A DNA stretch of 57,456 nucleotides from positions 1 to 57,456 of the IMG/VR virus record IMGVR_UViG_3300013004_000054, one strand, 5' to 3'. Numbering within the stretch: the stretch's first letter is position 1; every line of letters begins with the position of its first letter. Shown in pieces: positions 1,370 through 36,233 of the stretch. Below the pieces are notes generated by a model that saw nothing but the letters and a program-made list of their open reading frames with translations, ran no database searches and was not told the DNA's origin. The position numbers were made by a program, and so were the translations under genes. The DNA comes from a virus (lineage: Duplodnaviria > Caudoviricetes).

Positions 1370-3661
<2,292 letters not shown>

Positions 3662-3662
3662 T

Positions 3663-4562: not shown

Positions 4563-4567
4563 TAGAT

Positions 4568-4720: not shown

Positions 4721-4778
4721 AAAGATGCAAATTACAATTAGTTCTATTAACCCAACAACAAAAGGAGTTGCGATATAA

Positions 4779-5798: not shown

Positions 5799-5799
5799 C

Positions 5800-13673: not shown

Positions 13674-13740
13674 CCAGCAAGTAGATATTAACCATGTGTT
13701 TCTTGCAGGACTAGTAGTGTACTAATCCGAAGTAAGTGTG

Positions 13741-13746
13741 TATAAT
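13741..13746 (+). promoter_or_regulatory. Putative -10 element (TATAAT) for the 13788-20218 cassette
   Basis: Consensus TATAAT in a 114-bp intergenic gap, 42 nt before a GGAGG-preceded ATG. Confidence 0.5.
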
Positions 13747-13787
13747 AATTCATAGCGACGGTAACATCAAACAATGGAGGACACAAG

Positions 13788-14570: not shown

Positions 14571-14572
14571 CT

Positions 14573-16883: not shown

Positions 16884-16908
16884 ACAAAGACATAAGGGAG
16901 AGAAGAAC

Positions 16909-17835: not shown

Positions 17836-17843
17836 GATACACG

Positions 17844-19114: not shown

Positions 19115-19123
19115 GAGAGACGC

Positions 19124-21239: not shown

Positions 21240-21767
21240 CTATGCGTCGTTATACGTTCCAAGGTACAGATTGCTATTTACGTCTGGCCAAAGGTACTGA
21301 TAGTAAGGAGGACGTGTTCCAGTATCTTCTGGCCAACCAAACTGAGAGTACCAGCCGTAATCTTTACGTAGCAGTGCAATACGGTGAGTAGATGCAACCT
21401 GCTCAAACTTGTCAGTGTCCGACATCCAGCCAGGCATAGTTAGCTTGTCTTGGACACGACCCATACTTACTGCTAGGTCATAGGTACCGTAGATCTTTGG
21501 GAGCATGGTAGACTTGAAACCACGTTTGCGCCATTCAAAGTAGGTCGCCGCAAGATACGAGACTAAAAGCTTTTCGTGACCGCGCCACATGTGCGCAACA
21601 GGATGATTAACCCAGCCTTTAGGGTCACGATGATTACCTTGCGGGTCTAGTTCTGTAAGCGCAAGCAGAACCTGCCAGCCTTCAAGAGTTTGCTTGTGTA
21701 GACGCTTGTTGTCGATCTCGTGAGCAATACGCTCGAACGAGTCAGTCTGAGGTATAAACGTTTGCAT
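21240..21767 (-). CDS. Pyrimidine-dimer DNA glycosylase (DenV/MSMEG_6728 family)
   Basis: MQTF.P, D.KRL.KQ..E..Q, NHP...MW.GHE, EW..RG and SHR..LL.KD...Y motifs. Confidence 0.8.
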   Translation of the reverse strand: MQTFIPQTDSFERIAHEIDNKRLHKQTLEGWQVLLALTELDPQGNHRDPKGWVNHPVAHMWRGHEKLLVSYLAATYFEWRKRGFKSTMLPKIYGTYDLAVSMGRVQDKLTMPGWMSDTDKFEQVASTHRIALLRKDYGWYSQFGWPEDTGTRPPYYQYLWPDVNSNLYLGTYNDA

Positions 21768-21811: not shown

Positions 21812-22087
21812 CTAGCCCTCTTCGTCAAATTCCTCATCGTCTTCAAGAGGTCCAGAATCAAATGAGATCTCGTCTTCATTCTTCTCAGTGAATATACCGG
21901 CAACGGTGAGTTCGCCGCAAGTGCAACACGCGTGAACAGATCCGGGAGAAAGACGCAATGGAACTGCAATGGCAATAAGTTTGGAGACAAGACTGCCGTC
22001 ATCTCCAACTGACTCTGGTTCCCACTTGCTATTCTCCGCTATGTAGCAGACTTCGCACTGTGGGTAGGCGCTTTTTTTACGGCGCAT
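21812..22087 (-). CDS. Small Cys-rich (CxxC...CCxC) hypothetical protein
   Basis: Stop/start overlap with the methyltransferase; possible Zn finger; acidic tail. Confidence 0.6.
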   Translation of the reverse strand: MRRKKSAYPQCEVCYIAENSKWEPESVGDDGSLVSKLIAIAVPLRLSPGSVHACCTCGELTVAGIFTEKNEDEISFDSGPLEDDEEFDEEG

Positions 22088-23343
22088 CAGGCTCCTTCTA
22101 CAGCATCAGAGTACCACTTTTTCTTAGCCGAGAAACGCGAGAACGATTTGTCAGCGTCAATAAGGTATTCGCGTTCGCCAATCAGTTCACCTTGCGGTCC
22201 GTTAGGCTGGCCTTCTAAGGCGGCTACAATGCCCTCTCCTAGCCATCTAGCAGCATTCACTGGTACTGCTTTGCCCCAGACTGCTTGTAGGCTTGAGTAA
22301 TCCTTTACGCTTTCAATGTCCCAATCGTCTGGCAGACCTTGCATGCGTGCAGACTCACGATGAGTGATAAGACGTGGCTCAGTTGGGTGAACCACATGAT
22401 CTAGTGCAGATCCTGTAAGAACGTTACACCAGTGATCTTCCTTCCAACGATATGGTTGTGAAAAACCAAGTTTGTATTCCTTACGTAGTACACGCGGAGC
22501 AATATCAATCCACTTTTGAGGAAACGCTCCACCGTTCATTTCTACTGCCTTTTTGATAGCTCCGCCAAGATCACCGTTGCCTGGCCAACCATCATTGCCG
22601 ATGATGTCAAACACTTCTTGAATTCTCTGCGCGTGAATGTTGTTCTTTCCAATATGACCATTCACTAGACCATTCTTGGATTTCAAGTGGCTAACCCAAC
22701 GGGACGGTTCTTCCACGTAAGGTTGCGCTTCCCACTTACGCGGAAGTTTTGCAAGATCTCCAATAATGTCCATTATTCTTGGAAGCTCTGTAGGCTGAAC
22801 AACATTGATACCAAAAGGCATACCTGATTCAACTGCAACCCAGAAGTATCGTGGGCGGAATGAGAAACCACCTAATTGAAGATTATTGTGCTTGATGTGG
22901 TATAGGTCGTACTTCTTGTTTGAGACGTCTTCGACCATCTTACGGTACTTGTTCATAACATCGCGACCTTGCGTGTACGCTTGTTGCACACACTCGAAGG
23001 CGATAATCTTAGGCGCTACTCGACCAGCATAGCGCATAAACGCGCGAGTATGCTCGTGCGCCTGTGCGTCTGGGCCTCTGTTCGCTTCACCGGACCAGAC
23101 AGACCAACCAGAGCATGGAGGGCAACCAGCAACTACATCAGCTTTTAACACTGGCCATTCACTGGAGTCTTCTGAGAAAAAGGTACTCCACGAATTGCCA
23201 AGGTAATTTCTGTTTGCTTCAGCAAGAGGATTACCAAAGTTAAGAGTTCCAGTCCGTGCAGTCATTGTCATTCCAGACTGAACAAGGCCAAGACTCATAA
23301 AGCCTGCAAGTCCATTGCAGTCAATAAAGGTAGGTTGAGACAC
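22087..23343 (-). CDS. C5-cytosine DNA methyltransferase-family protein with atypical motifs
   Basis: Motif I DCNGLAG, IV GCPPCSGWS, VI FECV, VIII RPRYF, IX RE.AR.QGLPD, X WGKAVP. GGAGG RBS before GTG. Confidence 0.8.
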   Translation of the reverse strand: MSQPTFIDCNGLAGFMSLGLVQSGMTMTARTGTLNFGNPLAEANRNYLGNSWSTFFSEDSSEWPVLKADVVAGCPPCSGWSVWSGEANRGPDAQAHEHTRAFMRYAGRVAPKIIAFECVQQAYTQGRDVMNKYRKMVEDVSNKKYDLYHIKHNNLQLGGFSFRPRYFWVAVESGMPFGINVVQPTELPRIMDIIGDLAKLPRKWEAQPYVEEPSRWVSHLKSKNGLVNGHIGKNNIHAQRIQEVFDIIGNDGWPGNGDLGGAIKKAVEMNGGAFPQKWIDIAPRVLRKEYKLGFSQPYRWKEDHWCNVLTGSALDHVVHPTEPRLITHRESARMQGLPDDWDIESVKDYSSLQAVWGKAVPVNAARWLGEGIVAALEGQPNGPQGELIGEREYLIDADKSFSRFSAKKKWYSDAVEGA

Positions 23344-23398
23344 GCGGCATATCCTCCATCATTTCGTTATGGGTATACTTTATACCGCGTTTGATGTT

Positions 23399-23698
23399 TT
23401 ATTGGGTATTCTTAGAAAGAATTTGGCCTACCTCGTAGCCACAACCTGCGTAGCCAGCGACGTCAATCCATGTGTCAGGTTGGAACCCAGACTTCGACGC
23501 GTAACGCGCAACCTTAAGCCCAACCATCATCATTGCAACATCTTCGGAAGTGATATTGGTACCTAGAATCACTCCCCAGATCTTTGCGATACGTTCAAAG
23601 TTCTCCTCTGGACCTCCGTATTGAATATCGCGGTCGCCAGCGATAATTCGTGCTGCCTCACGGAGAGCTTCTACGCGTGGTGTTACATCTTGTGTCAT
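23399..23698 (-). CDS. DUF6378-family protein
   Basis: L.EA..II.GDR...YG.PEENF.RIA..W...DVA.MM..LK.AR...D.W.D.AGYA pattern. Confidence 0.75.
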   Translation of the reverse strand: MTQDVTPRVEALREAARIIAGDRDIQYGGPEENFERIAKIWGVILGTNITSEDVAMMMVGLKVARYASKSGFQPDTWIDVAGYAGCGYEVGQILSKNTQ

Positions 23699-23898
23699 TA
23701 CTTTATCCTCACATGCGCTGTTGCTATATAGATGATTGACTCTGCATCTTCTTGCTGTACTTTAACCTCTACGTCGACAGCAGACATTGCGTCTTCTACG
23801 CTGTCTATTGACAGATAGCCGCAGACAAGCTTATGAACCTGCTCAACTATCTCCCCGTGAGTCTTTCCTTTAACCTTAAATTCCACACTTGATCTCAT
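23698..23898 (-). CDS. Hypothetical protein (66 aa)
   Basis: Stop/start overlaps on both sides. Confidence 0.65.
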   Translation of the reverse strand: MRSSVEFKVKGKTHGEIVEQVHKLVCGYLSIDSVEDAMSAVDVEVKVQQEDAESIIYIATAHVRIK

Positions 23899-24317
23899 CA
23901 GCCTACTCTTTTCTCTAACTTGTATGGAGAGTAGTGAGTGCCATCAAGCAAAGGTTCCTTGCCGTCTGTAGACTTAAAGATAATGTCTCCGTAACGAACA
24001 GCAACAACCTTACCTTTACGCCCATTGTGAATGCGACCAGTATCATCACTAAACGCATCACTAGCAACACGGACCTCGTCGCCAACGTTAATAAAGCCAG
24101 GGCGAGCTGGTTCCCATACTTCATGTTTGCTCTCGACAGTAAGAGCATGATTAAGTGCAACCTTAGAAAAGAGGTCAACCGCCTCTTTTGCTGCTGCTTC
24201 ACTTAGTTTTAGATCATTCCATGTTGAAAGAAGCTTAAGCACCGATGTGCCTACGCCTACTTTCACCTTTGCGGCTTGAAATTGTTCTCTAACCCAAGCC
24301 TCATCAACTTGCGGCAT
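23898..24317 (-). CDS. Hypothetical protein with KOW/SH3-like C-terminal region
   Basis: Probable start MPQVD at 24317 after AGGAGG; VGDEVRV...GRKGKVVAVR pattern. Confidence 0.65.
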   Translation of the reverse strand: MPQVDEAWVREQFQAAKVKVGVGTSVLKLLSTWNDLKLSEAAAKEAVDLFSKVALNHALTVESKHEVWEPARPGFINVGDEVRVASDAFSDDTGRIHNGRKGKVVAVRYGDIIFKSTDGKEPLLDGTHYSPYKLEKRVG

Positions 24318-24786
24318 TTGTTTCCTCCTTAGGTGAGCATTTTGCACACGTTCCTTCAATAACACCGGCACCGACATCGTCGATGGCTCGCGCGCATGCT
24401 ACGCACTTGACTCCAGCGTCTTTTACCTTGTATCCCTTAAGTTGACGTTGACGGTTTTTCTCCATCTTCTCAAGGTAATACTTGTTTAGTTGTTCGTCTG
24501 TTCCTCCAGCCGCAACAATAATGTTTGCGACAAAGTGCAGAACGTCAACAGCTTCTTTGATTATCTCTTCGCGGTCTGCGTATGGCTTGTCATGCTGCCA
24601 AGGCTTCCACGAGATTGCCTGGCGCATTTCTGCTAGCTCATCATCAATGGCTAGCATGTTCCAGCGCATGTACTCAACAAGACGACGAATGTTCGCGTCC
24701 TTATCCCCACTCATTTCTTCGTAGTTGATAAAGTACGTGTTTTCTTGTAGATCTTTTGTCTTATACAGCCATTTATTAAACAGCAT
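24304..24786 (-). CDS. All-alpha (dimeric dUTPase/dCTPase, MazG-like) nucleotide pyrophosphatase with C-terminal CxxC..CxxC
   Basis: DELAE....WKPW....EE..KEAVDVLHF...Y..K...N..RQ..GY signature. Confidence 0.8.
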   Translation of the reverse strand: MLFNKWLYKTKDLQENTYFINYEEMSGDKDANIRRLVEYMRWNMLAIDDELAEMRQAISWKPWQHDKPYADREEIIKEAVDVLHFVANIIVAAGGTDEQLNKYYLEKMEKNRQRQLKGYKVKDAGVKCVACARAIDDVGAGVIEGTCAKCSPKEETNAAS

Positions 24787-24787
24787 G

Positions 24788-25813
24788 CTATATTGCTCCT
24801 CTCCCTACTGCGATGCGAAGACCTAGTTGATCTTCTAGTAACGTTTTTGCTGCACTTTTAGACGGAATACTTGTTAAGTACTCTGCGGTCTGTCTTGTTG
24901 AAAGTGCGTTTCTTTCTTGGTTTGTCATTGTTTCTATTGGTGAGGCAAGCATACTCCACGAATCACCGATGCTGGAACTTTCGCGCCATTCAGTTGCAAT
25001 CGGTGTTTGCGCATTCATTGCTTGTGCATACCGGTATGTCCACCATGTTCCACCCTTGTACTGTGGTAGTAACACTCCTGACGACATTAGAATTTGGTCG
25101 TAGCATTCCTCGTCCTTCCATCCTTTGTTCCAACGGATAGGTACTATAGGAAATGACAGCGTTTTAGCAATTGACTTTGCCCAAGTAGTCGTTGGTCCTT
25201 CAGCAGCCCATCGGTTAAAGCGCACGTCAGTCTTATTTGATCTTGGCTCAATTAGATATGCATCAAGGTTTATTCCGTTAAGCACAAGCCCTTCAGGGAG
25301 TTCACGCTCAATTGAAGTAACATCGTGCCAAGGCAAAGACGGATAGATTGTTTTAGGCCATTTGCCACTCAGTAACTTATTAACAGTCTTGATAAGACGT
25401 TTAGATACGTCTGGGCTGTTGACTAGTTGGTAACCTTTGCGGTATGAGAAGAACGGCTTTGTTAGATTCTCTGGTGTAGACGATATAGCTCGAAGACTCG
25501 CAGTGATCTGCGCCGGGTGCGGTGCGTCGATAAACAAGGTAAGTTTATCACTGTTATACATCACGTCGATAATGTGAAGTGCACCATATGCCTTATTAGC
25601 ACTTAGACTGGTTAATGGCGAGACGCCAACAAGCACTGCGTCATAGTAATTGAGATTTTCAACCGTCCACGTGATGTCAGGTTCCATCATCACAACGGTG
25701 TGTCCTGCTTCAGTTAACACCTTTTCAATTGCGCCAGCAAAAGAAAGAGAGCGTTTATTGGCGGACATGGACATCTGTGGTGCAGACATTCCAGTTATAA
25801 GAACACGACTCAT
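24788..25813 (-). CDS. Putative GT-B-fold glycosyltransferase, paralog 2
   Basis: RVLITG..., L..AGH.V, YDA, PL.SL, GAL and WW..R motifs shared with 25810..27021. Confidence 0.55.
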   Translation of the reverse strand: MSRVLITGMSAPQMSMSANKRSLSFAGAIEKVLTEAGHTVVMMEPDITWTVENLNYYDAVLVGVSPLTSLSANKAYGALHIIDVMYNSDKLTLFIDAPHPAQITASLRAISSTPENLTKPFFSYRKGYQLVNSPDVSKRLIKTVNKLLSGKWPKTIYPSLPWHDVTSIERELPEGLVLNGINLDAYLIEPRSNKTDVRFNRWAAEGPTTTWAKSIAKTLSFPIVPIRWNKGWKDEECYDQILMSSGVLLPQYKGGTWWTYRYAQAMNAQTPIATEWRESSSIGDSWSMLASPIETMTNQERNALSTRQTAEYLTSIPSKSAAKTLLEDQLGLRIAVGRGAI

Positions 25814-27021
25814 GCATCAGTCCCGTCTGCATTTAGTTTAAGGCCTTTGTCTTCCTTAAGCGCGCGGGTAATAATTTTCTCAACGTGATCCTTAAAACCG
25901 TCATAGGTTCCAATGTACGGTCGTAGCGCATCAGCCTGAGCCTTTGCAGCAGCCTCTAGTTCCGCGTCAGACATCTTTTCGACGTCAGCCACGGTTAGCT
26001 TATAGGCATCACCTAACGGATCGCCCTCACCCTTGTCTGTGACAAGAATAGAGCCAATGCGTGCAGCATACAAGAAGCGTGAGCGCCACCAACCAGAACC
26101 AGCATGTGGGTACGGAGGTGACAAGATTCCCCAACGCTCGTTGTAGAAGTTTAGAACATCAAGTTCTGTGTCAAGGCGTTGTCCACCAAGTTTACGAATA
26201 AGTTTACGACTACCAATAATTTCAACTTGCCAGCCAAGATTCTTTCTTGCAAGCCATTCATCGTGAGGCATCAACGCGCCAAGTACCCATGCGCGTTTCT
26301 TTTCTGCTGCAGGTTTTGGTGTAATTGCGTTTAGCGTGTCAAATGTTACACAACTTGGATCAAGTGCCTCGATAGGGCCAACTTCACTTGGCATGCGTTT
26401 GCGAACACTAGTGCGGTCGCCCCACGCGTACATTGGACAAACTGGAACCATTCCAGCTTCCCAACGACGGTCAATCATGTCTGTTGCTGCTTGCACAAGA
26501 CGTTTTTCATAAGGCTTAATCTGTTCGTCCGTGTCCATCATGTAGTAGCGCTCAATGTAGCATTTCTTTGCAGCGTCTGGGTCTTTTTCTCTAACTCTTT
26601 CAAGTGCAGCCTCAATGTCTGCACGACTAAAGTATGTTGCGCCTTCTTCGCCGCGATGTTCAGTTCCTACAAGCAGATGTTTGTACAACATCGCAGGTTT
26701 GCGAACCATCGCGCGAGCGCCATTAAAAACTGTGTTAAACTGCCAATCGTCAAAGAATCCGACTGAAGGCAGTCCTGATGAAAGAGCGTATAGTGCACCC
26801 ATCGCGCCTTGGCGTCCGTTAAGTGAGTTTAACGGTGCAAGATTTATCCACGCGGCATCGTATGATGATAGATCTTCTCCAGGCGTGACCTTTCGCCAAT
26901 CTACATCGTGCCCTAGATCTGTTAACGCTTTTGCAATCAGTGCTGGTACATCAATCTTCTGAATAGTACGTCGCTCTGTGTTAATCTGCAGCGCTGTAAA
27001 TCCTGTCATCAAGATTTTCAT
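25810..27021 (-). CDS. Putative GT-B-fold (DNA) glycosyltransferase, paralog 1
   Basis: MKILMTG start, L..LGHDV, FFDDWQ, and C-terminal E.DV..FY....GIL.PPY...GWWRSR typical of GT-B donor-binding domains. Confidence 0.6.
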   Translation of the reverse strand: MKILMTGFTALQINTERRTIQKIDVPALIAKALTDLGHDVDWRKVTPGEDLSSYDAAWINLAPLNSLNGRQGAMGALYALSSGLPSVGFFDDWQFNTVFNGARAMVRKPAMLYKHLLVGTEHRGEEGATYFSRADIEAALERVREKDPDAAKKCYIERYYMMDTDEQIKPYEKRLVQAATDMIDRRWEAGMVPVCPMYAWGDRTSVRKRMPSEVGPIEALDPSCVTFDTLNAITPKPAAEKKRAWVLGALMPHDEWLARKNLGWQVEIIGSRKLIRKLGGQRLDTELDVLNFYNERWGILSPPYPHAGSGWWRSRFLYAARIGSILVTDKGEGDPLGDAYKLTVADVEKMSDAELEAAAKAQADALRPYIGTYDGFKDHVEKIITRALKEDKGLKLNADGTDA

Positions 27022-27036
27022 GCTTACTCCTATCTA

Positions 27037-27091
27037 AGTTGCTGGTATCATTGCCCATATTTTTGGTACAGGCAATGATACCAGAACAACT
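27037..27091 (-). terminator. Long intergenic stem-loop between ssb and the GT pair
   Basis: CTGGTATCATTGCC (27042-27055) pairs perfectly with GGCAATGATACCAG (27071-27084); extended by AGTTG/CAACT; no U-tract. Confidence 0.55.
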
Positions 27092-27096
27092 AGTTA

Positions 27097-27663
27097 TTAG
27101 AATGGCGACGCAGGTGCTGCTGGCGCTTGAGCAACAGGAGCTACTGGAGCTTCTGCCATTACAGGCGCTGGAGCTGGTGCTGGTGCCGGAGCTGGCGCTG
27201 GAGCCGGTGCTGGTGCAGGTGCTGGTGCAGCTGCTGCAGCGGTCGTTGCAGTAGCGGTTGCAATGTAGTACATCTTGATTTCGTTTTTCTTGGAACCATT
27301 CCAAGTACGTGAACCAATCTGTGCACGGAACGCGCGTCCCTTAAGTGCAGCCTCAATCTGTGCATTACTTGGGCTTGATGAGAAGTATTCACGTCCCAAA
27401 CCAAGTGCTGCCATTTTGCGGAAGAACATGCCTAATGCAGCAGGGCTGTCAGGTGTGACAACTAAGTTGTCCCAGACCAAACGCTTGTTGTGTGGTCCTC
27501 CCTGTACTTGTGCCTTAACAGCAAACATGGTCTTTCCTGATTGTGCTACCTTTGCAGTAGCTTCTAATACGAGGAGATCGTAATCTCCGTCTGGTAGTGG
27601 ATCGTAGTTTCCTCCGACGTCACCGGCGTCCTTAACAAGATCGCCCCAATTGAGTGAACTCAT
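27097..27663 (-). CDS. Single-stranded DNA-binding protein (DUF669-like)
   Basis: YDPLP.G.Y, SGK.M, WDNLV, (AP)n linker and terminal PF; lies next to Sak4. Confidence 0.75.
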   Translation of the reverse strand: MSSLNWGDLVKDAGDVGGNYDPLPDGDYDLLVLEATAKVAQSGKTMFAVKAQVQGGPHNKRLVWDNLVVTPDSPAALGMFFRKMAALGLGREYFSSSPSNAQIEAALKGRAFRAQIGSRTWNGSKKNEIKMYYIATATATTAAAAAPAPAPAPAPAPAPAPAPAPAPVMAEAPVAPVAQAPAAPASPF

Positions 27664-27702
27664 GTACCTTTACCTTTCCTTGTTGTGCGCTAACCGGATT
27701 GG

Positions 27703-28473
27703 CTAGGACGCTGCTTTTTTTGTTTTAGCTTCTGGCTTTGGGCCAAAAACCAAGTCTAACATTCGTTCAATTCCAAGATTTTCTTGTTCGACTACTTTTC
27801 CTAGTCGCCCTTGAACGCGTTCACCGGCCTCGTATGCATCAGTACGTTCGACGTACATGCGACGTACTTTGTATGGAGGTTGCAGTGGATCTGGGTTTGG
27901 CTGTGTTTCCACAGTAATCGCACCCAAAATGTCGTAAAAATACGGAGCCTGAATTGCAAGCTGACCTTGAAGGTACGGACGCACGCGCCCATCTTGTCCA
28001 GGACGAGCCATAGCAGTTAGCACAACAGCTTCTAGCGGTTGTGTTGGGTGCATTGTTAAGTCACGTAGGTCACGCAATAGCGCTCCCATGTGACGAAGCA
28101 ATTCGCCCCACTGCTGCATCTTCATTTGTTCTGTACCAGCGATGCTATCCATACACTTCACTTGAAGCTCTGAGATAGAATCAATAATCAATGACTTAAA
28201 CTGATGCTTACCAGTTTGTAACCATTGAAACGACTTCATGACTACATCGTAGTCACGAACATTCACAACCACAGTATCCCAGGTTCCATCTGCAACAGGT
28301 GGTTCCTCCCGCAATGGGTCCCAGTACTTAACATTGATGGGAAGGAATCTATGTCCACCCTCAACGTCAAGCATGAGACGGGGATAAGGTGCGGTTACCG
28401 CAAAAGTTGATTTACCAACCTTTGACTCGCCATACACCATGATTGTGAGGGAACGTTGTACTTCGTTTGACAT
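27703..28473 (-). CDS. Sak4-like AAA_24 ATPase (ssDNA annealing protein)
   Basis: YGESKVGKST Walker A, LDVEGG, IIDSISELQ Walker B. Confidence 0.8.
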   Translation of the reverse strand: MSNEVQRSLTIMVYGESKVGKSTFAVTAPYPRLMLDVEGGHRFLPINVKYWDPLREEPPVADGTWDTVVVNVRDYDVVMKSFQWLQTGKHQFKSLIIDSISELQVKCMDSIAGTEQMKMQQWGELLRHMGALLRDLRDLTMHPTQPLEAVVLTAMARPGQDGRVRPYLQGQLAIQAPYFYDILGAITVETQPNPDPLQPPYKVRRMYVERTDAYEAGERVQGRLGKVVEQENLGIERMLDLVFGPKPEAKTKKAAS

Positions 28474-28476
28474 ACG

Positions 28477-29418
28477 TCACTCACTTCCTTTCTTCTCTTC
28501 GTTGTTGTTGTAATATCCGTATGGATCTGCTGATGCATACGATTCGCTAATTGCTTGTTCGGCGGCGGAACCGTCGTCGATCAGCGGGCAAATAGCGAAA
28601 AATTGGCACTTCCACTTACAGTCACGGCTTGGACGTGGATATGCGACTAGTTGATGAGTAACTCCCTCATCTAAAGCTTTACGGACGTTTAGCAAGTCGC
28701 TAATTGTTCCGTGGACGCGCTGCCAAAAGGCACGCAGTGTAAAGATGTTGTGACGAACTTCCATCTGCTCATAGAAAGGTGGCTTTGCATTTGCAGTGCG
28801 CTTTACCTTCTTCAACATCGTGAAGATGCCGCCTTCTGAACGTTCGCCTTCCTTATTTTGTGCAGTCTCGAGCATCATGTATGTAAGAATCTGCTCATTC
28901 ATATGCGCCATTGACGCGAAGTCTGTAAAGGAACCACCGACTGTCTTAAAGTCACGGAACATACGAACACCGTCAGCCTTGCGACGAACGCGCATGTCAA
29001 TCTTGCCTTGCAAGATTACCTTATTGTCGAACAACGGCATTTCAATAATCTCTTCAGTAGAAATCATCTCTAACTCTGCGTCGATACCTTGGTCTTCTAC
29101 CCAGTCAAGGTAACCTTCAAGCATGATGCGACCAAGCTCTGCCTCAGAGTCAAGATCAGAAGTATCGCGAAACGAATTGGCAAGAATTAACTTATCTTTT
29201 TCTACAAGTGCTGCGTGCGCCTCAATTAAAGGAATGTCCTTTGAGTAGTAGTCATCAAGCGCTTGGTGGATACGTGAACCAAGAGCAAGTGCGCCTGTTT
29301 TTGATTCCATTCTAGGTTGCAGTCTACGATAGTAGCTAAGCCACCACTTTCGTCTGCAGTCCTTAAACGTTTGCAGCTCTGAGTTAGAGATGCGTAGTGG
29401 ACCAGTAAGTTCACTCAT
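28477..29418 (-). CDS. PD-(D/E)XK RecB/Cas4-like exonuclease
   Basis: IS.S.L..F..C.RKW, LG...H, GKID, DFKT, QI..Y and C.W.C.F...C motifs. Confidence 0.85.
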   Translation of the reverse strand: MSELTGPLRISNSELQTFKDCRRKWWLSYYRRLQPRMESKTGALALGSRIHQALDDYYSKDIPLIEAHAALVEKDKLILANSFRDTSDLDSEAELGRIMLEGYLDWVEDQGIDAELEMISTEEIIEMPLFDNKVILQGKIDMRVRRKADGVRMFRDFKTVGGSFTDFASMAHMNEQILTYMMLETAQNKEGERSEGGIFTMLKKVKRTANAKPPFYEQMEVRHNIFTLRAFWQRVHGTISDLLNVRKALDEGVTHQLVAYPRPSRDCKWKCQFFAICPLIDDGSAAEQAISESYASADPYGYYNNNEEKKGSE

Positions 29419-31220
29419 AGTTTTCCCGCCTTATCATCTTTAAGAAGCGATAACAGTTGAGCCTTATCGCGAACGATTTGTTCAAAGTTATCTGCCTTTG
29501 TTTCTAGTACTTGAATTACGCGTTCCTCGATAGTTCCTTCAGTGACGTAATCAGTGATTACCACTGAGTCGTGAATCTCTGAACCAATACGGTGAATACG
29601 GTCAAGTGCTTGCTTGTGGTCAACAAGTGACCAAGGACGCTGTAGCATGACAAGACGTCTTGCCGCAGTTAGTGTAATTCCGACACCACCAGCCTGTGCT
29701 GTAAAAAGTATCCACTTGATCTTGCCAGCCTGAAAATCATCAACTGCTTGTTGACGTTCATCTTCATCCTGAGCACCAGTGATGAGACCATGTGGAATTT
29801 TTTCCTTAGTTAGTTCTGCACTAAGTAAATCTATAAGTTGTCGTGATACAGCGCATACTGCAACTGAGTCGTCACCAAAGTCGCCGCTCTTGATGTCGTC
29901 CATAAGCGCATCAACCTTGCACGAAGGACCGATAAGTTTAACTTCAGTCTCGCCTGTAGATTCATCAACTGTTACTTCTGCAAATGAACTTGCAAACTGC
30001 AGAAGACGAATTGTCTGAGTTAGTGCGCTTGGCGCAGTTAATGAATCTCCACCTTCAAGCTCTGCAATCATAAGATCACGCATCTGGTCGTAAGCTTTCT
30101 TTTGCTTAGTTGACATTTCAACGTCCTTGCGTTCAAACATCATTTCTGGCAGCCAAGGAAGTACTTTTTTCTTAAGCATACGACGCATACGAGGATTGAC
30201 GGCAGCATAGAACTCTTCTTCCATGTGAGGCTTTACACCAAGAACCATCATTCCGCCAAATGCGTTAAGCATAATGTTAATCATTCGGTCAATCCAGCGA
30301 GTCTTGCTTGGCCATTCCTCAGGTGACAACCAGTGAAGAATCGACCATAGATCTAAAACGTTGTTTGCAATAGGTGTTCCAGTGAGTGCAAAACGAATGT
30401 CAGCGTTCCCAGTAGCAGCCCACAGCGCACGTGTCTGTTTTGACTTAGGCTCTTTTGAGCGGTGAATCTCATCAGCAACTACTGACTTAAAGTCGATTGC
30501 GTTTAATTCACGACGATGTACCTCGCAACGATTTTCACTTACTTTTTCATCGTGGCCGCCGCAGTCCTTGCATTTTGCAAGAGCAATTGATCCATATCCT
30601 GCAAGTCTAGAGTGTGTCCTCAAGGACTCCCAGTTAATAACGAATACATCAGCGTCGTTCTCAAAGATCTTCCTACGTTGCGTTGCGGATCCTTTGATTA
30701 CCTCAACGTCAATGCCTGGCCACCAGCGCTCAAACTCACGCTTCCAGTTTTTCTTAAGAGTATTAGGGCAGACGATAAGAGCTGGGAACACATCGTTACC
30801 TTGTGCTTGTAATTCCTTTAGCGCACGGATTGCTTGGGCTGTTTTTCCTAAGCCAGGTTCATCAGCAAGTAGCGCCCGTCGTGCTGTAGCAAGAAACTTT
30901 ACGCCTGCTCGTTGGTGGGGAAATAGGTCCTCGTTAGAGGCGTCCTCAAGGGTCTCTAGGTCACGAAGAGCGTTGGCTGGGGTAATACGCGTGGCTAGCT
31001 CATTTGATGCCCAGAGCGACAATTTAGGGCCAATTATTAGGTCGTCACGAAAGGTTGAGCGTAAGGCAAGACAGGTTGCCCACGATGCAGGAACTCTCCA
31101 CTGCTGCGCACCGGCATCCCATTTTGATCCAGGAATACTTTTGCAAAGCTCTTTAAAGCGCCACTCAGTATGGATAATTATATTAGCGCTTGAATCATCA
31201 AGCTCTACATTTACTGGCAC
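29415..31220 (-). CDS. SNF2-family helicase
   Basis: LADEPGLGKT, DEIH, LTGTP, GGVGITLT and QA.DRIHRIG motifs; inserted CxxC...CxxH. Confidence 0.9.
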   Translation of the reverse strand: MPVNVELDDSSANIIIHTEWRFKELCKSIPGSKWDAGAQQWRVPASWATCLALRSTFRDDLIIGPKLSLWASNELATRITPANALRDLETLEDASNEDLFPHQRAGVKFLATARRALLADEPGLGKTAQAIRALKELQAQGNDVFPALIVCPNTLKKNWKREFERWWPGIDVEVIKGSATQRRKIFENDADVFVINWESLRTHSRLAGYGSIALAKCKDCGGHDEKVSENRCEVHRRELNAIDFKSVVADEIHRSKEPKSKQTRALWAATGNADIRFALTGTPIANNVLDLWSILHWLSPEEWPSKTRWIDRMINIMLNAFGGMMVLGVKPHMEEEFYAAVNPRMRRMLKKKVLPWLPEMMFERKDVEMSTKQKKAYDQMRDLMIAELEGGDSLTAPSALTQTIRLLQFASSFAEVTVDESTGETEVKLIGPSCKVDALMDDIKSGDFGDDSVAVCAVSRQLIDLLSAELTKEKIPHGLITGAQDEDERQQAVDDFQAGKIKWILFTAQAGGVGITLTAARRLVMLQRPWSLVDHKQALDRIHRIGSEIHDSVVITDYVTEGTIEERVIQVLETKADNFEQIVRDKAQLLSLLKDDKAGKL

Positions 31221-31250
31221 TGTGCTTAGTCCTCTCGTCGTTACGTAATC

Positions 31251-31259
31251 ATACTATCA
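31251..31259 (-). promoter_or_regulatory. Extended -10 promoter TGATAGTAT
   Basis: TGn-TAnnnT in the gap upstream of the helicase. Confidence 0.45.
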
Positions 31260-31307
31260 GGATTTTTAGAAAAGCAAACACTTTTCTGCTTAGTATCTAC
31301 TTTTTTA

Positions 31308-31760
31308 TTATTGTAGCAATCTTGTGGGTTTCCATCCTGTTTTTACCAGTCTAAGCAGCCCATGTCGAATAGCGTCAAGCGCGTGACCTTCCCCACCTTT
31401 ATGCCAGTATTCAAGTTTCTTAAGTTTAGGGTTATCAAACATTGCCTTTGCGTCCGCGGGAGACTGAAAATAAATGTCGTCAGGTTTTCTCCCTGCGTCC
31501 ATAAGACACTGCTTAAGGATACCAATTTGCTCAAGTGAGTAAGGTGCCTGCGAGTTACGAACAGTCTGAGCGTTGATGGTAAATCTTTCACACACTACTT
31601 CAACATCAGGGTACATCCGCAATGTTTCACGAATCGGTTGAGCGTATTCTTCCTGTTGGTACTCACCCGACCACACAAGAACGGGTTCAGCATCAGCCTC
31701 CCTGGTGAAAAGAGCCATACCAGTTGCCTTACCTGGGTCTACTGAAAGTATTACCTTCAT
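31308..31760 (-). CDS. RuvC-like Holliday junction resolvase
   Basis: ILSVDPG..TG, VVCE, H..DA motifs. Probable start MKVIL at 31760 (ATGA overlap). Confidence 0.75.
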   Translation of the reverse strand: MKVILSVDPGKATGMALFTREADAEPVLVWSGEYQQEEYAQPIRETLRMYPDVEVVCERFTINAQTVRNSQAPYSLEQIGILKQCLMDAGRKPDDIYFQSPADAKAMFDNPKLKKLEYWHKGGEGHALDAIRHGLLRLVKTGWKPTRLLQ

Positions 31761-32077
31761 GTCCACACCACCTGGGCTACGCCCAACCTTTCCAAATAAC
31801 TTTGACATTTCTTGCACGGCTTCGAATACGCAGGTGAACCATCAGCCGCAAGTCTTGCAACATAAACCAACGCGCCCTTGGCACGAGTCCCAGCAGCAAG
31901 AACGGCAGCAGCCTCAGCATGAATATGTGATCTACGCCAATGCGTTGTTGGGTCCGCTATTTTTTTGTTTGTTGCAGTTGCAATAATTCTCCCCCTAGAT
32001 ACCACGATACATCCGTGCCTGTATCGACACTTACTTTTTTGTGCAACCTCAAGAGCCATCTCAAGGTACCTGTTCAT
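31757..32077 (-). CDS. Minimal Zn-dependent cytidine/dCMP deaminase-fold protein
   Basis: HAE and SKPCKKC motifs; 106 aa. Confidence 0.8.
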   Translation of the reverse strand: MNRYLEMALEVAQKSKCRYRHGCIVVSRGRIIATATNKKIADPTTHWRRSHIHAEAAAVLAAGTRAKGALVYVARLAADGSPAYSKPCKKCQSYLERLGVAQVVWT

Positions 32078-33897
32078 TAGTACTTATCTCCCCATGTTTC
32101 AAGTGGACCGTCGATACCTGATGTAAGCGGGACGTCCCAACCTTCACGAGTTGTCATGCACTCTTTGACTATCTGCATAATCTCTTGAGCGTCCTTGCGC
32201 GGTGCATTAAGAACAATTTCGTCGTGCACTGGAACGATGAGAAGCTCGGTTAGATCTGCTTGGTCAAGTTTAACAAGGTTAGACTTGAAAACTTCAGCCG
32301 CGCCTCCTTGAATTAGATAGTTAACAAGAGTGTAAGCGCGGTCATCATCACATGGGAGACGTCGTCCTGTCCAAGTATAAACGTAACCTTGCCCTTCTGC
32401 CTTTAGACGACGCATACCGGCATCTTCTATTTGGCGTTGGAACAGTGCCATTCCAGGATAGCGTGTGTCAAACGCATCGGACACTTGACGCATCTGCATT
32501 TCTGGAACTCCAGCAGTTAAAGCTTGTTTTGAGACGCCTGCTCCGTAGAGACGACCATAGACAGTTCCCTTAATAAGATTACGACGTTTGTCTGACCGTT
32601 GCATCGTTGGGTCATTGTAGATTTCACGACCAATTTCCGTGAACGGATCCGACCCCGTTGCGTCCGCACGATTGAATAGTGTGATGAGGTTTGGATCTTT
32701 AGAGAGTGATGCGAACATTCTGAATTCAACCTGGTCAAGGTCTGAGGTGATGATGACGTGATCTTCGTCCTTTGGGATAAACGCGGTACGAACAGTAGCA
32801 TCACCTTTAGGCAAAGTCTGTAGCGCTGGATTCTGAATAGACATGCGTGATGTGCGTGCGCCAAGTGTCTTTACTGATGGATGAACAAAGCCGTTGACGT
32901 TATCGTTAAGAAAGTTTGCAAAGTACGTGTTTGCAAGTTTATCTGCCTTGCGCTGCTTTAGAACTGTATCCGCTAGATTCTTTACCTCGGCGTTTCCTTC
33001 AATTGAAAGAAGCTGTAGTTGATCCTTATCTGCAGACTTCTGACCTGACGGAGTAAGCGCTGTGATCTCAGCGCCAAGGCTCTCGAATAGTCTTACCAGT
33101 TGTATGTTACTTGTGATTGATACACCGTTGTATGTTTGTGCTGCCCAGGTCTTTACAGACTCGGCATAGGACGTTAGCTCGTCAAACTTTTTCTTAGAGT
33201 AGTCAAGGTCGATACGCGCGCCATTGATTTCCATACGAGTGACGATCTTACGTGCAGCCATTTCTAATTCGTAGGCACGATGGTACGGTTGCCCTGGACC
33301 ACATTTCTCCCAGAACTGTTCCCACAAGCGCATAGTTAACACAGTATCCAACGCGCCATAAGCCCAGTAAGGTTGGAAGTTAGTTGGAACAGTTCCCCAT
33401 GTCCAACCATTTGTTACAAGTGATACATCTAATGTTTCCTGCATTGCTGCAGCACGACTATCAACATACAAAGATGAAAGACGCTTTAGCGCACCGGAAC
33501 CAAGTGGATCAATGATGTGAGCCATAATCATTGTGTCATGTGAACGTCCCCAGGGCATCTGCCATGTTGAGTGAACATCAAACCAACGAGCCTCAAACGC
33601 AATGTTGTGACAAACTATAGGTCCATCAAACTTGTCCATTGCCTCATAAAACACGCCGGCCCATTCCTTCCAGGGAATTGCCCAGCCAGTCATGCCATCA
33701 CCAACTTGCACTAGGCGCAGTTGCCCGTGCCAAGGTGAAAGAGCGTCCTTACGTTCGCCACCAGGATTCTCACCTGTTTCAGTATCTATTGCAATCGCGT
33801 TGTGTGGACGGCGTTCTCCAAGCCAAGATATAAACTGATGTGCAGTTTCTACGTTGTCTACGAGATGCAGTTTAACGTCACTTAGTCCTTCAGTCAT
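32077..33897 (-). CDS. polA: DNA polymerase family A with 3'-5' exonuclease
   Basis: DTET ExoI, HNIAFE ExoII, Y...D ExoIII, SDLDQVEFR motif A, R...K...YG..YG motif B, VHDE motif C. Confidence 0.92.
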   Translation of the reverse strand: MTEGLSDVKLHLVDNVETAHQFISWLGERRPHNAIAIDTETGENPGGERKDALSPWHGQLRLVQVGDGMTGWAIPWKEWAGVFYEAMDKFDGPIVCHNIAFEARWFDVHSTWQMPWGRSHDTMIMAHIIDPLGSGALKRLSSLYVDSRAAAMQETLDVSLVTNGWTWGTVPTNFQPYWAYGALDTVLTMRLWEQFWEKCGPGQPYHRAYELEMAARKIVTRMEINGARIDLDYSKKKFDELTSYAESVKTWAAQTYNGVSITSNIQLVRLFESLGAEITALTPSGQKSADKDQLQLLSIEGNAEVKNLADTVLKQRKADKLANTYFANFLNDNVNGFVHPSVKTLGARTSRMSIQNPALQTLPKGDATVRTAFIPKDEDHVIITSDLDQVEFRMFASLSKDPNLITLFNRADATGSDPFTEIGREIYNDPTMQRSDKRRNLIKGTVYGRLYGAGVSKQALTAGVPEMQMRQVSDAFDTRYPGMALFQRQIEDAGMRRLKAEGQGYVYTWTGRRLPCDDDRAYTLVNYLIQGGAAEVFKSNLVKLDQADLTELLIVPVHDEIVLNAPRKDAQEIMQIVKECMTTREGWDVPLTSGIDGPLETWGDKY

Positions 33898-34360
33898 TTA
33901 GAATCGTCACCTCAATGTTACAGTTTTTAAGATACTCAATTGTTGCTTCCGGCTTACGGTGCGCGGCGGTACTACTGACACGCATAACAACTCGATGTAC
34001 TCCTGAGTTTGACACAAGCTTTGCACACTGCATACACGCAACATCAGTGATGTATATTGTTCCGCCTTCAATACGAGAACGGTCAACATACATGAGTGCA
34101 TTAGCCTCAGCATGAATGGACGGGCAAGCGTCATAAACGTTGTCCAATGGAGCAACACCTTGTGCCCGTGGACACCAGCTAATACAATCACCTTCAACCT
34201 CAAGTGTTGCTGCTGGTCCGTTATAACCGGTAGAGGCTATTCGTTGATTAGCTGAAACGATAACCGCGCCAATTTGCGCACGAGAACAGCGTGAACGACA
34301 TGCAATAGTGTCTGCAATAGTCATCCACGTTGTATCCCAAGATGGCCTAATCTGTGCCAT
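33890..34360 (-). CDS. dCMP deaminase
   Basis: RS.C.R.Q.GA, TGYNG, HAE.NA, C..C motifs. Confidence 0.88.
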   Translation of the reverse strand: MAQIRPSWDTTWMTIADTIACRSRCSRAQIGAVIVSANQRIASTGYNGPAATLEVEGDCISWCPRAQGVAPLDNVYDACPSIHAEANALMYVDRSRIEGGTIYITDVACMQCAKLVSNSGVHRVVMRVSSTAAHRKPEATIEYLKNCNIEVTILND

Positions 34361-34368
34361 TTGCTTGC

Positions 34369-35247
34369 CTACTTTTCTTCAGCTTCTTGCTTTTCAGCTG
34401 CTTTTCTTTTATTACTTTCAATAGATGAAACCATTGCGCGAGTGTACCATTCTTCGTCACCTGTAAGTCTCATTGTTGCAGTTAGATCAGTCACCGCGTC
34501 GAGTGCAAGAAGAGCAGACGACTGAACCTCGCGCCAAGAGCGTCCAGTAATGTAAGGAATTGGTTCCATCTCCTTCGCGTACTTAAGAGTATTCGCTGCC
34601 TCATAGTTATTTTCATAGATGTGCAATGAACCAACGTGGTGAGCGTATGTTCCAGGCTCGATACCAAGAACTGATGCCACCGCAAGTTGAACGCGGGTAA
34701 ACTGGAAGAAGTCATAAGCAGCACCAAGCCAAACATCGTTTGAGCGCATGTACACGCTCATGTTAAGCTTATTATTGCGAATTCTAAACTGATGAAGAAT
34801 CGTGCACGGATAGTCGCGCTTTCCAGGTTGCAGATCAAACTGTGGGTTCCAAATAGTAACAACAGCCTGTCGCGTGTCTGGGTCTTTCTTTAGGCGACCA
34901 ATTACTGTGTCAAACTGATTAGCTGTGCGAAGACCGTATGCACCGTGAAACAAACCGTTGTCCTCGGCGTAGTTAGCAAACTGCGGTCCAATTGCAACCA
35001 CAAGCCCTGGGTAACTTGTACCAGACAGAAGCTGGCAAGCCTCAACCGCACCAATACCAGGCACAGCTCCACGACCTACGCCTAACGGTAAGGTGTCATA
35101 GATATTATCTATATGAATTACCGCGTCCTCAATCTCAAGTGTCTTAAGACCGCGTGGAGCGACCTCTACACCGTTGTTTAAGACGTGCTTTACAAGATCA
35201 ACGTAACCGTTAACCCCGTCCTTTAGCTCGATTACCGAAGCGCCCAT
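34369..35247 (-). CDS. Thymidylate synthase homolog, probable dCMP hydroxymethylase/methylase
   Basis: AYG.R, D..TRQAV, DYPC, MRSND..LG..YD (Asp at the substrate-specificity site), GSLHIY. Confidence 0.8.
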   Translation of the reverse strand: MGASVIELKDGVNGYVDLVKHVLNNGVEVAPRGLKTLEIEDAVIHIDNIYDTLPLGVGRGAVPGIGAVEACQLLSGTSYPGLVVAIGPQFANYAEDNGLFHGAYGLRTANQFDTVIGRLKKDPDTRQAVVTIWNPQFDLQPGKRDYPCTILHQFRIRNNKLNMSVYMRSNDVWLGAAYDFFQFTRVQLAVASVLGIEPGTYAHHVGSLHIYENNYEAANTLKYAKEMEPIPYITGRSWREVQSSALLALDAVTDLTATMRLTGDEEWYTRAMVSSIESNKRKAAEKQEAEEK

Positions 35248-36233
35248 TTGTCCTCCTTGTTTGGGTTTGTTGTATTTCTTTTAATTGCCTCGCCATACTC
35301 TGTCTTATCGCGATTGTGAAATCTGCGAACGTACTGTGGGTGAGGCAAAACTACGTCCGGTGTTACTCCTTGTGATTCCATTCCTTTTGCCGCAAGGCGA
35401 CCAAGAGCTATGGTTGTCGGTGAGTTAAGCGCAGTGTGAAGGGCGCTAAATGAACCATTCATGTCGTTGACGTTTACTATACCGACTGTCTTCCAAAACT
35501 CTGAAGGTAAGGCCGTAAGCAAGAACTCGCCAGAGTTACCATCAACCGGCATGAAAGGTAGATGGGTTTCTACGCCATACTTCTTTACGATGTTTCTGCA
35601 ATCACCAACAAGTAGAACCTCTGGCTCAAGTGAACCGATGTACTCTGGGAAAGAAACAAGTTTCTTGACTCTTTCGGAATTTAACGAGGCTGTATCAACA
35701 ACGCGCCTTGCAAGATCTGTTATGCCATCAAGACTATCGGCCTCTGGTTTAAGAATATCAGTAAGATTTGACACAACAGCGGCAGCGTTATACTGGTCAA
35801 GTATCTCACTAAGTTCGTTAACGTTGACAAAGTCGTCGCCGCGACTTGATAGACGAGACTGAATAACATCGAGAGGTTGATACAACCAAAATTGAGATAT
35901 ACCACGTGATTTCATGAAGAGCTCTGTCCATCGCCAGCCAGCTCTACCTAGTAAACCGTACCCATCATTATTCGTGTGAGGGCGTTTTAACGGTGCATAC
36001 GTAATCTCACCCCAGTGCCAACGATCTGATAGCGCGTTATTACGCGTCCAATCAACGGACTCAATTGACGTAACATAGTCGTTTAACACCCAACGACGAG
36101 TTTCCTCGCCTGGGCGACCTTTATGGAACTTCTGCAGATCACTTGACGGGTAGCGAGATCTAATCTCAGCATCAATAGCCTCGATTAGAGACGTTTTTCC
36201 AGAAGCGTCTGTACCTTCAATAACTATAAACAT
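35232..36233 (-). CDS. dNMP (thymidylate-like) kinase fused to a UDG-superfamily-like domain
   Basis: IEGTDASGKT P-loop, DRW, RL..RGD. C-terminal VLLVGD, PF...SG.FL, IALGR.A, LPHPQY. Confidence 0.75.
   Translation of the reverse strand: MFIVIEGTDASGKTSLIEAIDAEIRSRYPSSDLQKFHKGRPGEETRRWVLNDYVTSIESVDWTRNNALSDRWHWGEITYAPLKRPHTNNDGYGLLGRAGWRWTELFMKSRGISQFWLYQPLDVIQSRLSSRGDDFVNVNELSEILDQYNAAAVVSNLTDILKPEADSLDGITDLARRVVDTASLNSERVKKLVSFPEYIGSLEPEVLLVGDCRNIVKKYGVETHLPFMPVDGNSGEFLLTALPSEFWKTVGIVNVNDMNGSFSALHTALNSPTTIALGRLAAKGMESQGVTPDVVLPHPQYVRRFHNRDKTEYGEAIKRNTTNPNKEDKWALR

Follow-up and report, generated by a model that had tools for sequence, protein, structure and literature searches.

Does a phage of the Actinobacteria modify its cytosines before replication, in the manner of T4? 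The question is raised by virus record IMGVR_UViG_3300013004_000054 of IMG/VR (Duplodnaviria; Caudoviricetes), a stretch of 57,456 bases that constitutes the entire entry and is called the window here (~47% G+C; completeness estimate, 43%). An earlier note on this DNA had read its replication arm as a route from deoxycytidine monophosphate (dCMP) to 5-hydroxymethyl-dCMP (hm-dCMP), on to the triphosphate, into DNA, and finally to glycosylation. Every computational test that we ran favors that core route, but three genes associated with it, encoding a DUF6378 protein, a second deaminase, and a C5 methyltransferase, could not be linked to it. From gene presence, homology, folds, diagnostic residues, and neighborhood conservation, we consider pre-replicative modification of cytosine at C5 to be likely. 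For the full scheme, in which partly non-orthologous proteins carry out T4-style pre-replicative modification and later glycosylation to give glycosylated 5-hydroxymethylcytosine (hmC), the balance tips only slightly in favor.

All the genes that the note had named could be confirmed as minus-strand reading frames where it had placed them, and the family assignments hold (Table 1). A Pfam scan of 52 open reading frames (ORFs) in the window recovered collagen-like fiber genes and the tail module of a siphovirus, together with a WhiB regulator and a family-A polymerase (PolA); the last two make "PolA-type actinophage" a fair label. The nearest named phage is Actinomycetia phage DSL-LC01 (129 kb), which was assembled from a lake metagenome. 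Its replication arm is entirely syntenic with that of the window, at ~80% identity for replication proteins and 31 to 37% for two glycosyltransferase candidates. Of the 24 lake or freshwater metagenome runs listed, 20 contain sequence nearly identical to the window; these 20 come from 16 studies, and one may be the source. For comparison we used 80 related IMG/VR loci (the relative loci below), five relatives for gene absence, four of them at least 90% complete, and 50,697 GenBank phage records for family distribution.

The thymidylate-synthase homolog and its predicted product

The thymidylate-synthase (TS) homolog, a protein of 292 amino acids, matches Pfam Thymidylat_synt (PF00303) at 2.3e-27 and 96.2 bits (cutoff, 24.3). 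Its catalytic Cys148 (C146 in E. coli) is invariant in both alignments made. Three diagnostic positions carry Asp145, Asp171, and Asp179 (E. coli L143, D169, and N177, respectively), and the position of His147 is occupied by Thr. The set of Cys148 and the three aspartates is present in all 80 relative loci, and it fits the earlier description of this protein as a dCMP-type TS homolog.

Published work, as far as the sections available to us extend, ties these positions to substrate and product. Lee et al. (PMC13326640) connect N177D with dCMP as the substrate, describe a bulky L143 residue for enzymes with a methyl product against Asp or Glu for hydroxymethylases, and report that D169N marks flavin-dependent 5-hydroxy-dCMP synthases. 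In the MetaGPA study, N177D and replacement of His147 were both associated with cytosine-modified contigs (PMC8670742). The N177 column of our six-sequence alignment holds Asp in the window, DSL-LC01, Gordonia phage Sixama, phage AXL3, and T4 gp42, and Asn in the SPO1-type dUMP hydroxymethylase. Three residues before the catalytic Cys, five of the six sequences have Asp, including T4 gp42 and SPO1-type gp29. Among enzymes of known product, this L143 position is Asp in T4 gp42, SPO1-type gp29, and MilA, Asn in the Xp12 enzyme, and Leu in ordinary TS.

The window protein thus keeps Asp171 where 5-hydroxy-dCMP synthases of the RB69 gp48 type have Asn, Asp145 where Xp12-type dCMP methylases are non-acidic, and Asp179 where dUMP hydroxymethylases of the SPO1/M6 type have Asn. 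Judged by sequence, this signature separates it from synthases of dTMP, 5-methyl-dCMP, 5-hydroxy-dCMP, and 5-hydroxymethyl-dUMP, and we predict that it is a 5-hydroxymethyl-dCMP synthase. Overall identity is 32% to the SPO1-type hydroxymethylase, 28% to T4 gp42, and 24% to the Xp12 enzyme. Further, none of the five relatives has a ThyX or a dihydrofolate reductase (DHFR), and each has exactly one PF00303 match; in Xp12 a DHFR gene lies two genes from the methylase, just past the dCMP deaminase. A hydroxymethylase leaves folate unoxidized, so the lack of DHFR fits this prediction, if weakly.

A thymidine route by way of 5-hydroxymethyluracil was also considered, the first lead being SPO1-type dUMP hydroxymethylases among the nearest phage matches and an unusually long "kinase." It was ruled out by the Asp in the N177 column, the Tmk/YorR fold of the kinase, and the absence of 5-HMUDK and aGPT-Pplase families from the 52 window ORFs.

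Precursor enzymes and the kinase-UDG fusion

The earlier note had also recognized an all-alpha dCTPase/dUTPase-like enzyme, a dCMP deaminase, and a phage polymerase, and all three identifications stand. The 160-amino-acid pyrophosphatase, predicted to be a dCTPase/dUTPase, matches Pfam dUTPase_2 (PF08761) at 1.6e-12 and 48.4 bits (cutoff, 22.9), T4 gp56 at a BLASTP E value of 2e-10 (28% identity over 134 columns), and dimeric dUTPases in the PDB at 5.5e-6. The 156-amino-acid deaminase matches dCMP_cyt_deam_1 (PF00383) at 5e-18 and has the zinc motifs HAE (at residue 83) and C109xxC112. The polymerase combines DNA_pol_A (1.4e-54) with DNA_pol_A_exo1 and is 83% identical to the DSL-LC01 PolI.

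These genes are tightly packed. The kinase gene shares 16 bases with the TS gene, 8 bases separate TS from deaminase, and the deaminase gene shares 8 with the PolA gene. This succession of TS, dCMP deaminase, and PolA, close to a MazG-like enzyme, is that of the experimentally selected cytosine-modified metavirome contigs described in the MetaGPA papers (PMC8670742; 10.1101/2024.12.05.627091), which also share the TS residues (N177D, His147 replaced). In the portion of the latter report that covers deaminases, a TS gene was no more than 3 kb away for 104 of 149 deaminase genes on cytosine-modified contigs, compared with 17 of 277 on unmodified ones. Those contigs differ from the window in coming from sewage and coastal viromes, and the accounts of them center on carbamoyltransferases and deaminases selective for 5-methylcytosine (5mC).

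We predict that the 156-amino-acid deaminase provides the dUMP from which the host makes thymidylate. In an in vivo NEB screen, only 7 of 90 such deaminases were active on its 5hmdC substrate, and all 7 stood beside a TS predicted to make 5mdCMP (10.1101/2024.12.05.627091, in the part seen), so the window enzyme is more likely an ordinary dCMP deaminase feeding the host TS. The second deaminase named earlier is a real gene with intact zinc motifs (PF00383, 4e-13; HAE53, PC87KKC), but it is accessory, being present in 12 of the 80 relative loci and absent from DSL-LC01, and has no demonstrated role in the pathway. The 169-amino-acid frame that follows it has its true start near residue 20 and corresponds to the RuvC-like resolvase of DSL-LC01.

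The remaining precursor enzyme is a 333-amino-acid protein, listed earlier as a dNMP kinase. The earlier note had also mentioned an extra uracil-DNA glycosylase (UDG)-fold domain, and both parts were recovered in this protein. Thymidylate-kinase PHROG 761 matches residues 1 to 151 at 2.3e-12. In an AlphaFold2 (AF2) model with a mean predicted local distance difference test (pLDDT) score of 92.6, residues 1 to 192 align by VIA to SPbeta YorR (2axp) at Z 17.6 and to Tmk structures at Z 12.8 to 13.7. The P-loop is of the Tmk type, and TIGR00041 matches the P-loop only, below its cutoff. Residues 189 to 325 align in the predicted structure to family-4/5 UDGs and UdgX (1l9g, Z 10.6; 2d3y and 6ail, 10.5; root mean square deviation, 3.0 to 3.1 Å over 126 to 127 residues). 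By sequence, Pfam UDG falls below threshold (12.7 bits against a cutoff of 24.3; E = 0.14), and phmmer with the domain alone found no match in the PDB.

UDG families 4 and 5 carry an iron-sulfur cluster held by four cysteines. Residues 189 to 333 contain a single Cys, so the window domain lacks the family-4 cluster. Gly210-Asp211, Phe227, Asn233, and His298-Pro299-Gln300 are invariant in 33 homologs, suggesting that the domain holds a working pyrimidine pocket. It resembles the UDG domain of the phiLo polymerase (Z 9.2), and active UDG domains fused to PolA are reported, in the part of the source available, from SP15-like phages with modified thymine (PMC13697223). In both cases a UDG fold is joined to a precursor or replication enzyme of a pyrimidine-modifying phage; the partner in the window is a nucleotide kinase rather than a polymerase, and the domain is short (~137 residues). 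By this precedent, the domain may police uracil. A 159-amino-acid protein of no known family is encoded directly upstream of the kinase gene, in 76 of the 80 relative loci and, at 66% identity, in DSL-LC01.

Glycosyltransferase candidates in a variable slot

Two adjacent genes encode the candidate DNA glycosyltransferases, proteins of 341 and 403 amino acids that the earlier note had called GT-B-like paralogs. Their paralogy is clear (BLASTP, 3e-13; hhalign, 99.7%), and neither matches a Pfam, NCBIfam, or PDB sequence family. The 341-amino-acid family has 292 representatives at an E value of ≤0.001. An AF2 model of this protein, made from a 71-sequence alignment (pLDDT 95.9), has the two-domain GT-B architecture, and its top Foldseek match is the T4 beta-glucosyltransferase BGT (1j39; E = 5.6e-6, TM 0.53). 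Similarly, VIA, which is independent of Foldseek, ranks BGT (1c3j) at Z 16.6 (281 residues, 3.6 Å), PimA at 15.5, and the T4 alpha-glucosyltransferase AGT at 15.2. The 403-amino-acid protein, whose fold is assigned by paralogy, is 31% identical to a DSL-LC01 "glycosyltransferase"; its look-alikes in the Atlas are virus-only clusters, one of which has PF09198 (T4-Gluco-transf) in 100% of its members (score 0.96, a lead only). Profile comparison with BGT finds no relationship, and on the strength of the model we therefore place the paralogs, as predicted GT-B enzymes, in a new sequence family outside those of T4.

The two genes have 4 bases in common, and a single base separates them from the start of the dCTPase-like gene. 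Forty of the 80 relative loci contain the preceding DUF669 gene and at least 2.6 kb downstream of it, and in all 40 this slot holds at least one predicted glycosyltransferase. Both paralogs are present in 33; four have instead a 415-amino-acid AGT look-alike with an APH-like kinase and a HAD hydrolase; and one each has a GLF mutase between the paralogs, the 415- and 341-amino-acid types together, or the 341-amino-acid type alone. DSL-LC01 likewise has the variant with GLF (UDP-galactopyranose mutase). Phage NDP-sugar mutases beside DNA glycosyltransferases are described for Pootjesviridae in the portion of PMC13326640 available. In the alternative cassette (L044:18147-20676; also L017, L036, and L043), the phosphotransferase has 253 residues and the hydrolase 172 to 176, and the cassette may make a different, possibly phosphorylated, decoration. 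Language-model features liken the 415-amino-acid protein to clusters named DNA alpha-glucosyltransferase (0.99, again only a lead). By analogy, the variation of the slot resembles that of glucosyl- and arabinosyltransferases among T-even phages.

As for conservation of the neighborhood across relatives, which the earlier note had proposed as a check, the kinase-UDG fusion occurs in 78 of the 80 relative loci, the dCMP deaminase in 79, the TS signature in 80, and a glycosyltransferase in every eligible slot. In GenBank the 341-amino-acid family is confined to 14 records from nine phages (DSL-LC01 and eight Gordonia phages), a set identical to the 14 records that match the TS homolog best. Two distant members of the family (P0264 and P0259), used as queries, found nothing in IMG/VR. 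Sixama has the order glycosyltransferase, glycosyltransferase-family protein, MazG-like enzyme, DNA methylase, and WhiB that is seen in the window, with its TS gene ~22 kb away.

A proposed cytosine modification pathway and its alternatives

An experimental link comes from Stenotrophomonas phage AXL3, whose cassette joins a kinase-UDG fusion to a TS of the Asp/Asp type, together with a dCMP deaminase and an NTP pyrophosphatase. Its 327-amino-acid kinase aligns with the window fusion over the full length, UDG-like motifs included (hhalign, 96%); the genes annotated "thymidylate kinase" and "thymidylate synthase" in AXL3 (4046-5819) are in fact the fusion and the Asp/Asp-type TS homolog. AXL3 differs in lacking a member of the 341-amino-acid family and in having a separate ThyX, a different methyltransferase, and a proteobacterial host. 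According to the sections available of its description (PMC7504290), which also records the ThyX, just 2 of the 37 restriction enzymes tried cut AXL3 DNA, and each recognizes an A/T-only site. The cassette is thereby shown to go with modification of a G/C base; the result leaves the base itself unnamed. From the shared fusion and TS type we predict that the restriction-resistant AXL3 DNA carries a base derived from hmC.

Word usage in the window points weakly the same way. Counts of 6-bp words were compared with those expected from a maximal-order Markov model. A/T-only palindromes show strong depletion (observed, 16; expected, 52.6; ratio, 0.30), G/C-containing palindromes a mild one (669 and 778.7; 0.86), and A/T-only non-palindromes none (500 and 495.2; 1.01). 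The words AAATTT and ATTAAT do not occur at all, and TTTAAA is found 3 times where 12.9 would be expected. The contrast has the same direction in 6 of 6 IMG/VR relatives and is missing from the T4 control; DSL-LC01 and Xp12 have too few A/T-only words for comparison. Such a pattern is expected if G/C-containing sites are shielded and A/T-only sites exposed, and other causes are possible.

In the pathway that we propose, the gp56-like pyrophosphatase would hydrolyze dCTP (and dUTP) to the monophosphate, keeping plain C and U from DNA and feeding dCMP to the TS homolog, which would convert it, with methylene-tetrahydrofolate and water, to hm-dCMP. The Tmk-like domain of the fusion would phosphorylate hm-dCMP, host NDP kinase would complete hm-dCTP, and the phage PolA would put hmC into DNA in place of C, while the dCMP deaminase would turn part of the dCMP into dUMP for the host thymidylate synthase. 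Finally, the GT-B paralogs would move sugars from host NDP-sugars onto the hydroxymethyl groups of DNA, either at different sites or with different anomers, like T4 AGT and BGT, or sequentially to give a disaccharide. G/C-containing sites would thereby be shielded from restriction. In this scheme the catalytic activities, complete replacement of cytosine, the sugar, and the acceptor are what we infer.

The same logical parts are found in T4 (gp56 dCTPase, gp42, gp1 dNMP kinase, cd deaminase, and the alpha- and beta-glucosyltransferases). The dCTPase is homologous in sequence, the TS homolog and gp42 have Cys148, Asp179, and an acidic residue ahead of the Cys in common, and the 341-amino-acid model has the fold of BGT, its top match. 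The TS homolog, however, is nearer to SPO1-type enzymes than to gp42, the kinase is of the Tmk/YorR rather than the gp1 type and is fused to a UDG fold, and the glycosyltransferases form a separate sequence family. Unlike T4, the window belongs to a siphovirus of Actinobacteria that replicates with PolA, its lineage (five relatives) lacks a phage TS for dTMP, and a C5 methyltransferase is present.

Three alternatives concern the product of the TS homolog. In an Xp12-like phage it would make 5-methyl-dCMP, 5mC would replace cytosine, and the deaminase would convert part of the pool to thymidine nucleotides. This would explain the single TS homolog: as in Xp12, one Asp-type TS adjoins a deaminase, with no other TS or ThyX, and such deaminases can prefer 5mC (10.1101/2024.12.05.627091, in the part available). 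We nevertheless find it improbable, since the residue before the catalytic Cys is that of the three characterized hydroxymethylases rather than the Asn of Xp12, identity is lower to the Xp12 enzyme than to the SPO1-type hydroxymethylase, the DHFR of Xp12 has no counterpart in the five relatives, and glycosyltransferases would have no hydroxyl to act on; none is annotated in the 38.8-kb stretch of Xp12 examined. Annotations of DSL-LC01, AXL3, and the Gordonia phages would instead make these ordinary supply genes, namely a TS forming dTMP, a thymidylate kinase, and a dUTPase, with DNA that is canonical except for methylation by the C5 methyltransferase. To this we give very little credence, given that Asp at N177 and Thr at H147 are the residues of cytosine-modified contigs in the MetaGPA text available (PMC8670742) and that AXL3, with its separate ThyX, has DNA resistant to 35 of 37 restriction enzymes (PMC7504290, as excerpted). 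No more credible is a 5-hydroxy-dCMP synthase that depends on flavin, like those of RB69 and DLP3, with O-glycosides built directly on 5-hydroxycytosine. Such phages and RL38JI also combine a TS homolog and a dNMP kinase with several DNA glycosyltransferases, their enzymes share Asp at N177 and an acidic L143 residue, and the NDP-sugar mutase of RL38JI relatives resembles the GLF variant found with glycosyltransferases in sister phages of the window (PMC13326640, in the sections available); the D169N signature, however, is absent, and the window protein retains Asp171, as do all 80 relatives.

The fourth alternative accepts hmC but has the paralogs glycosylate something else, for instance virion proteins, a glycan of the cell wall, or a small molecule, leaving DNA with bare hmC or some other decoration. 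Some mycobacteriophages glycosylate virion proteins, and a separate cluster with a GT2-TPR protein and methyltransferases near the fiber genes suggests that non-DNA glycan work occurs here. By sequence the paralogs belong to no DNA glycosyltransferase family: the hhalign probability of the 341-amino-acid family profile against T4 BGT is 1.5%, and neither protein is a member of PF09198. GT-B is moreover a very common fold, and PimA, within ~1 Z of BGT, is a near-tie. The acceptor could for these reasons be non-DNA. We still think this unlikely, because the genes for the paralogs are part of the operon for replication and nucleotide metabolism, packed against each other and the dCTPase gene, the slot alternates among BGT-like, AGT-look-alike, and GLF-containing cassettes, the T4 DNA glucosyltransferases are among the top structural matches, and the distribution of the family equals that of the TS clade.

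Other points, together with the missing family link and the near-tie just given, weigh against glycosylated hmC. Modification is predicted here from genes, for close relatives as well, and the available part of the paper on Gordonia phage GMA2 (PMC4524720) contains no experimental data on its DNA. The L143 rule is a correlation seen among a small number of characterized enzymes and is not proven to determine the product. Some of the 40 slot loci duplicate one another, and the "AGT-like" label comes from language-model features only, as BLASTP against T4 AGT was non-significant, Pfam gave none, and phmmer against the PDB nothing useful. Common descent could also explain why the glycosyltransferase family and the TS clade occur together, the phages being related overall (PMC10611076, in part).

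A further such point is the 418-amino-acid C5 methyltransferase homolog, since a conserved enzyme of this kind would lack an obvious substrate in DNA whose cytosines all carry a C5 substituent already; this leaves incomplete replacement, or a different target or chemistry for the enzyme. It matches Pfam at 3.8e-17 and 63.2 bits (cutoff, 22), keeps the PPC, RxR, and RE..R.QG.PD motifs, has ECV for ENV and GK for GN, and occurs in four of the five relatives and, as a "DNA methylase," at the same relative position in Sixama. The earlier name "Lys-type transferase" is misleading: the catalytic Pro-Cys is intact, and Lys replaces the Asn of what we take to be motif X, not the nucleophile. No evidence for a role of this protein in the pathway was found, and nothing links the DUF6378 protein, which the earlier note had included. 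DUF6378 has no solved relative that we could find, and the papers that mention it concern unrelated phages of Faecalibacterium, Klebsiella, and Brucella. TET/JBP (PF12851) had no match in the five relatives, nor in the positive control. The 138- and 66-amino-acid proteins have no demonstrated link to the pathway.

A more far-reaching joint reading, which we regard as a long shot, is that a cosmopolitan lineage of actinophages from lakes (and, with Gordonia as host, from soil) replaces all of its cytosine with a hypermodified base other than simple glucosyl-hmC. The C5 methyltransferase homolog would then act on hmC, its attack at C6 allowing the C5 substituent to be exchanged or extended. The UDG domain would be an active glycosylase that removes uracil or plain cytosine, which would tie the making of precursors to surveillance of the modified genome, and the slot variants (BGT-like pair, AGT look-alike with kinase and phosphatase, galactofuranose) would give sister phages different DNA glycans.

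Table 1. Features of the window, with the replication arm first (positions in the 57,456-base window)
Feature	Position	Strand	Basis
292-aa TS homolog, predicted 5-hydroxymethyl-dCMP synthase	34369..35247	-	Pfam PF00303, residues
333-aa kinase (aa 1-192) with UDG-fold domain (aa ~189-325), predicted hm-dCMP kinase	35232..36233	-	PHROG 761, AF2
156-aa dCMP deaminase	33890..34360	-	Pfam PF00383
606-aa family-A DNA polymerase with 3'-5' exonuclease domain	32077..33897	-	Pfam
160-aa all-alpha NTP pyrophosphatase, T4 gp56-like, predicted dCTPase/dUTPase	24304..24786	-	Pfam, BLASTP
341-aa GT-B protein, candidate DNA glycosyltransferase	24788..25813	-	AF2 model, Foldseek, VIA
403-aa paralog of the 341-aa protein, candidate DNA glycosyltransferase (fold by paralogy)	25810..27021	-	hhalign
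418-aa C5 DNA methyltransferase homolog	22087..23343	-	Pfam DNA_methylase PF00145
99-aa DUF6378 protein	23399..23698	-	Pfam, 8.9e-29
106-aa second zinc deaminase, accessory	31757..32077	-	Pfam PF00383
159-aa protein	36282-36761	-	No family
Pyrimidine-dimer DNA glycosylase (Pyr_excise, T4 endonuclease V type)	21240-21767	-	Pfam; between methyltransferase and WhiB
WhiB	20202-20756		Pfam scan
GT2 glycosyltransferase with TPR repeats	19124-20218	+	Pfam
Methyltransf_24 proteins	15222-16883, 18515-19114	+	Pfam

Outside the replication arm, the plus-strand regions 83-5798 and 6957-11546 encode three collagen-repeat proteins and a 1529-amino-acid protein with three carbohydrate-binding CBM_5_12 modules, presumably fibers or receptor-binding proteins. 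Beside them, the plus-strand region 11601-20218 encodes several family-less proteins, the two Methyltransf_24 proteins, and the GT2-TPR protein; this cluster may modify glycans on the virion or host surface, apart from the DNA pathway. The Pyr_excise gene is conserved in DSL-LC01 and is in keeping with a phage of sunlit surface water. A 1529-amino-acid frame without a Pfam family (52721-57310, minus strand) marks the start of the structural arm; in DSL-LC01, large "capsid maturation protease" annotations head the structural module, upstream of the major capsid protein.

T4-type modified-cytosine DNA has been documented mainly in phages of Proteobacteria, and a literature search for hmC DNA in actinobacteriophages found no report, as judged by titles. 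The best-supported view is that the window follows T4 logic with a different TS clade, a kinase-UDG fusion, and an apparently new GT-B family in a swappable slot, in a host phylum for which we found no report of hmC. The fusion, which AXL3 also has, is an architecture not described before and goes with TS cassettes of the Asp type. The same module is present in cultured Gordonia phages (Sixama, GodonK, Phendrix, and GMA2, for example), which makes the question testable at the bench. If the pathway operates as proposed, the paralogs would represent a new family of DNA glycosyltransferases and a possible tool for hmC labeling. An abundant group of freshwater phages would then carry glycosylated hmC, which would affect both the recovery of such phages by sequencing and their encounters with host restriction, CRISPR, and modification-dependent nucleases.

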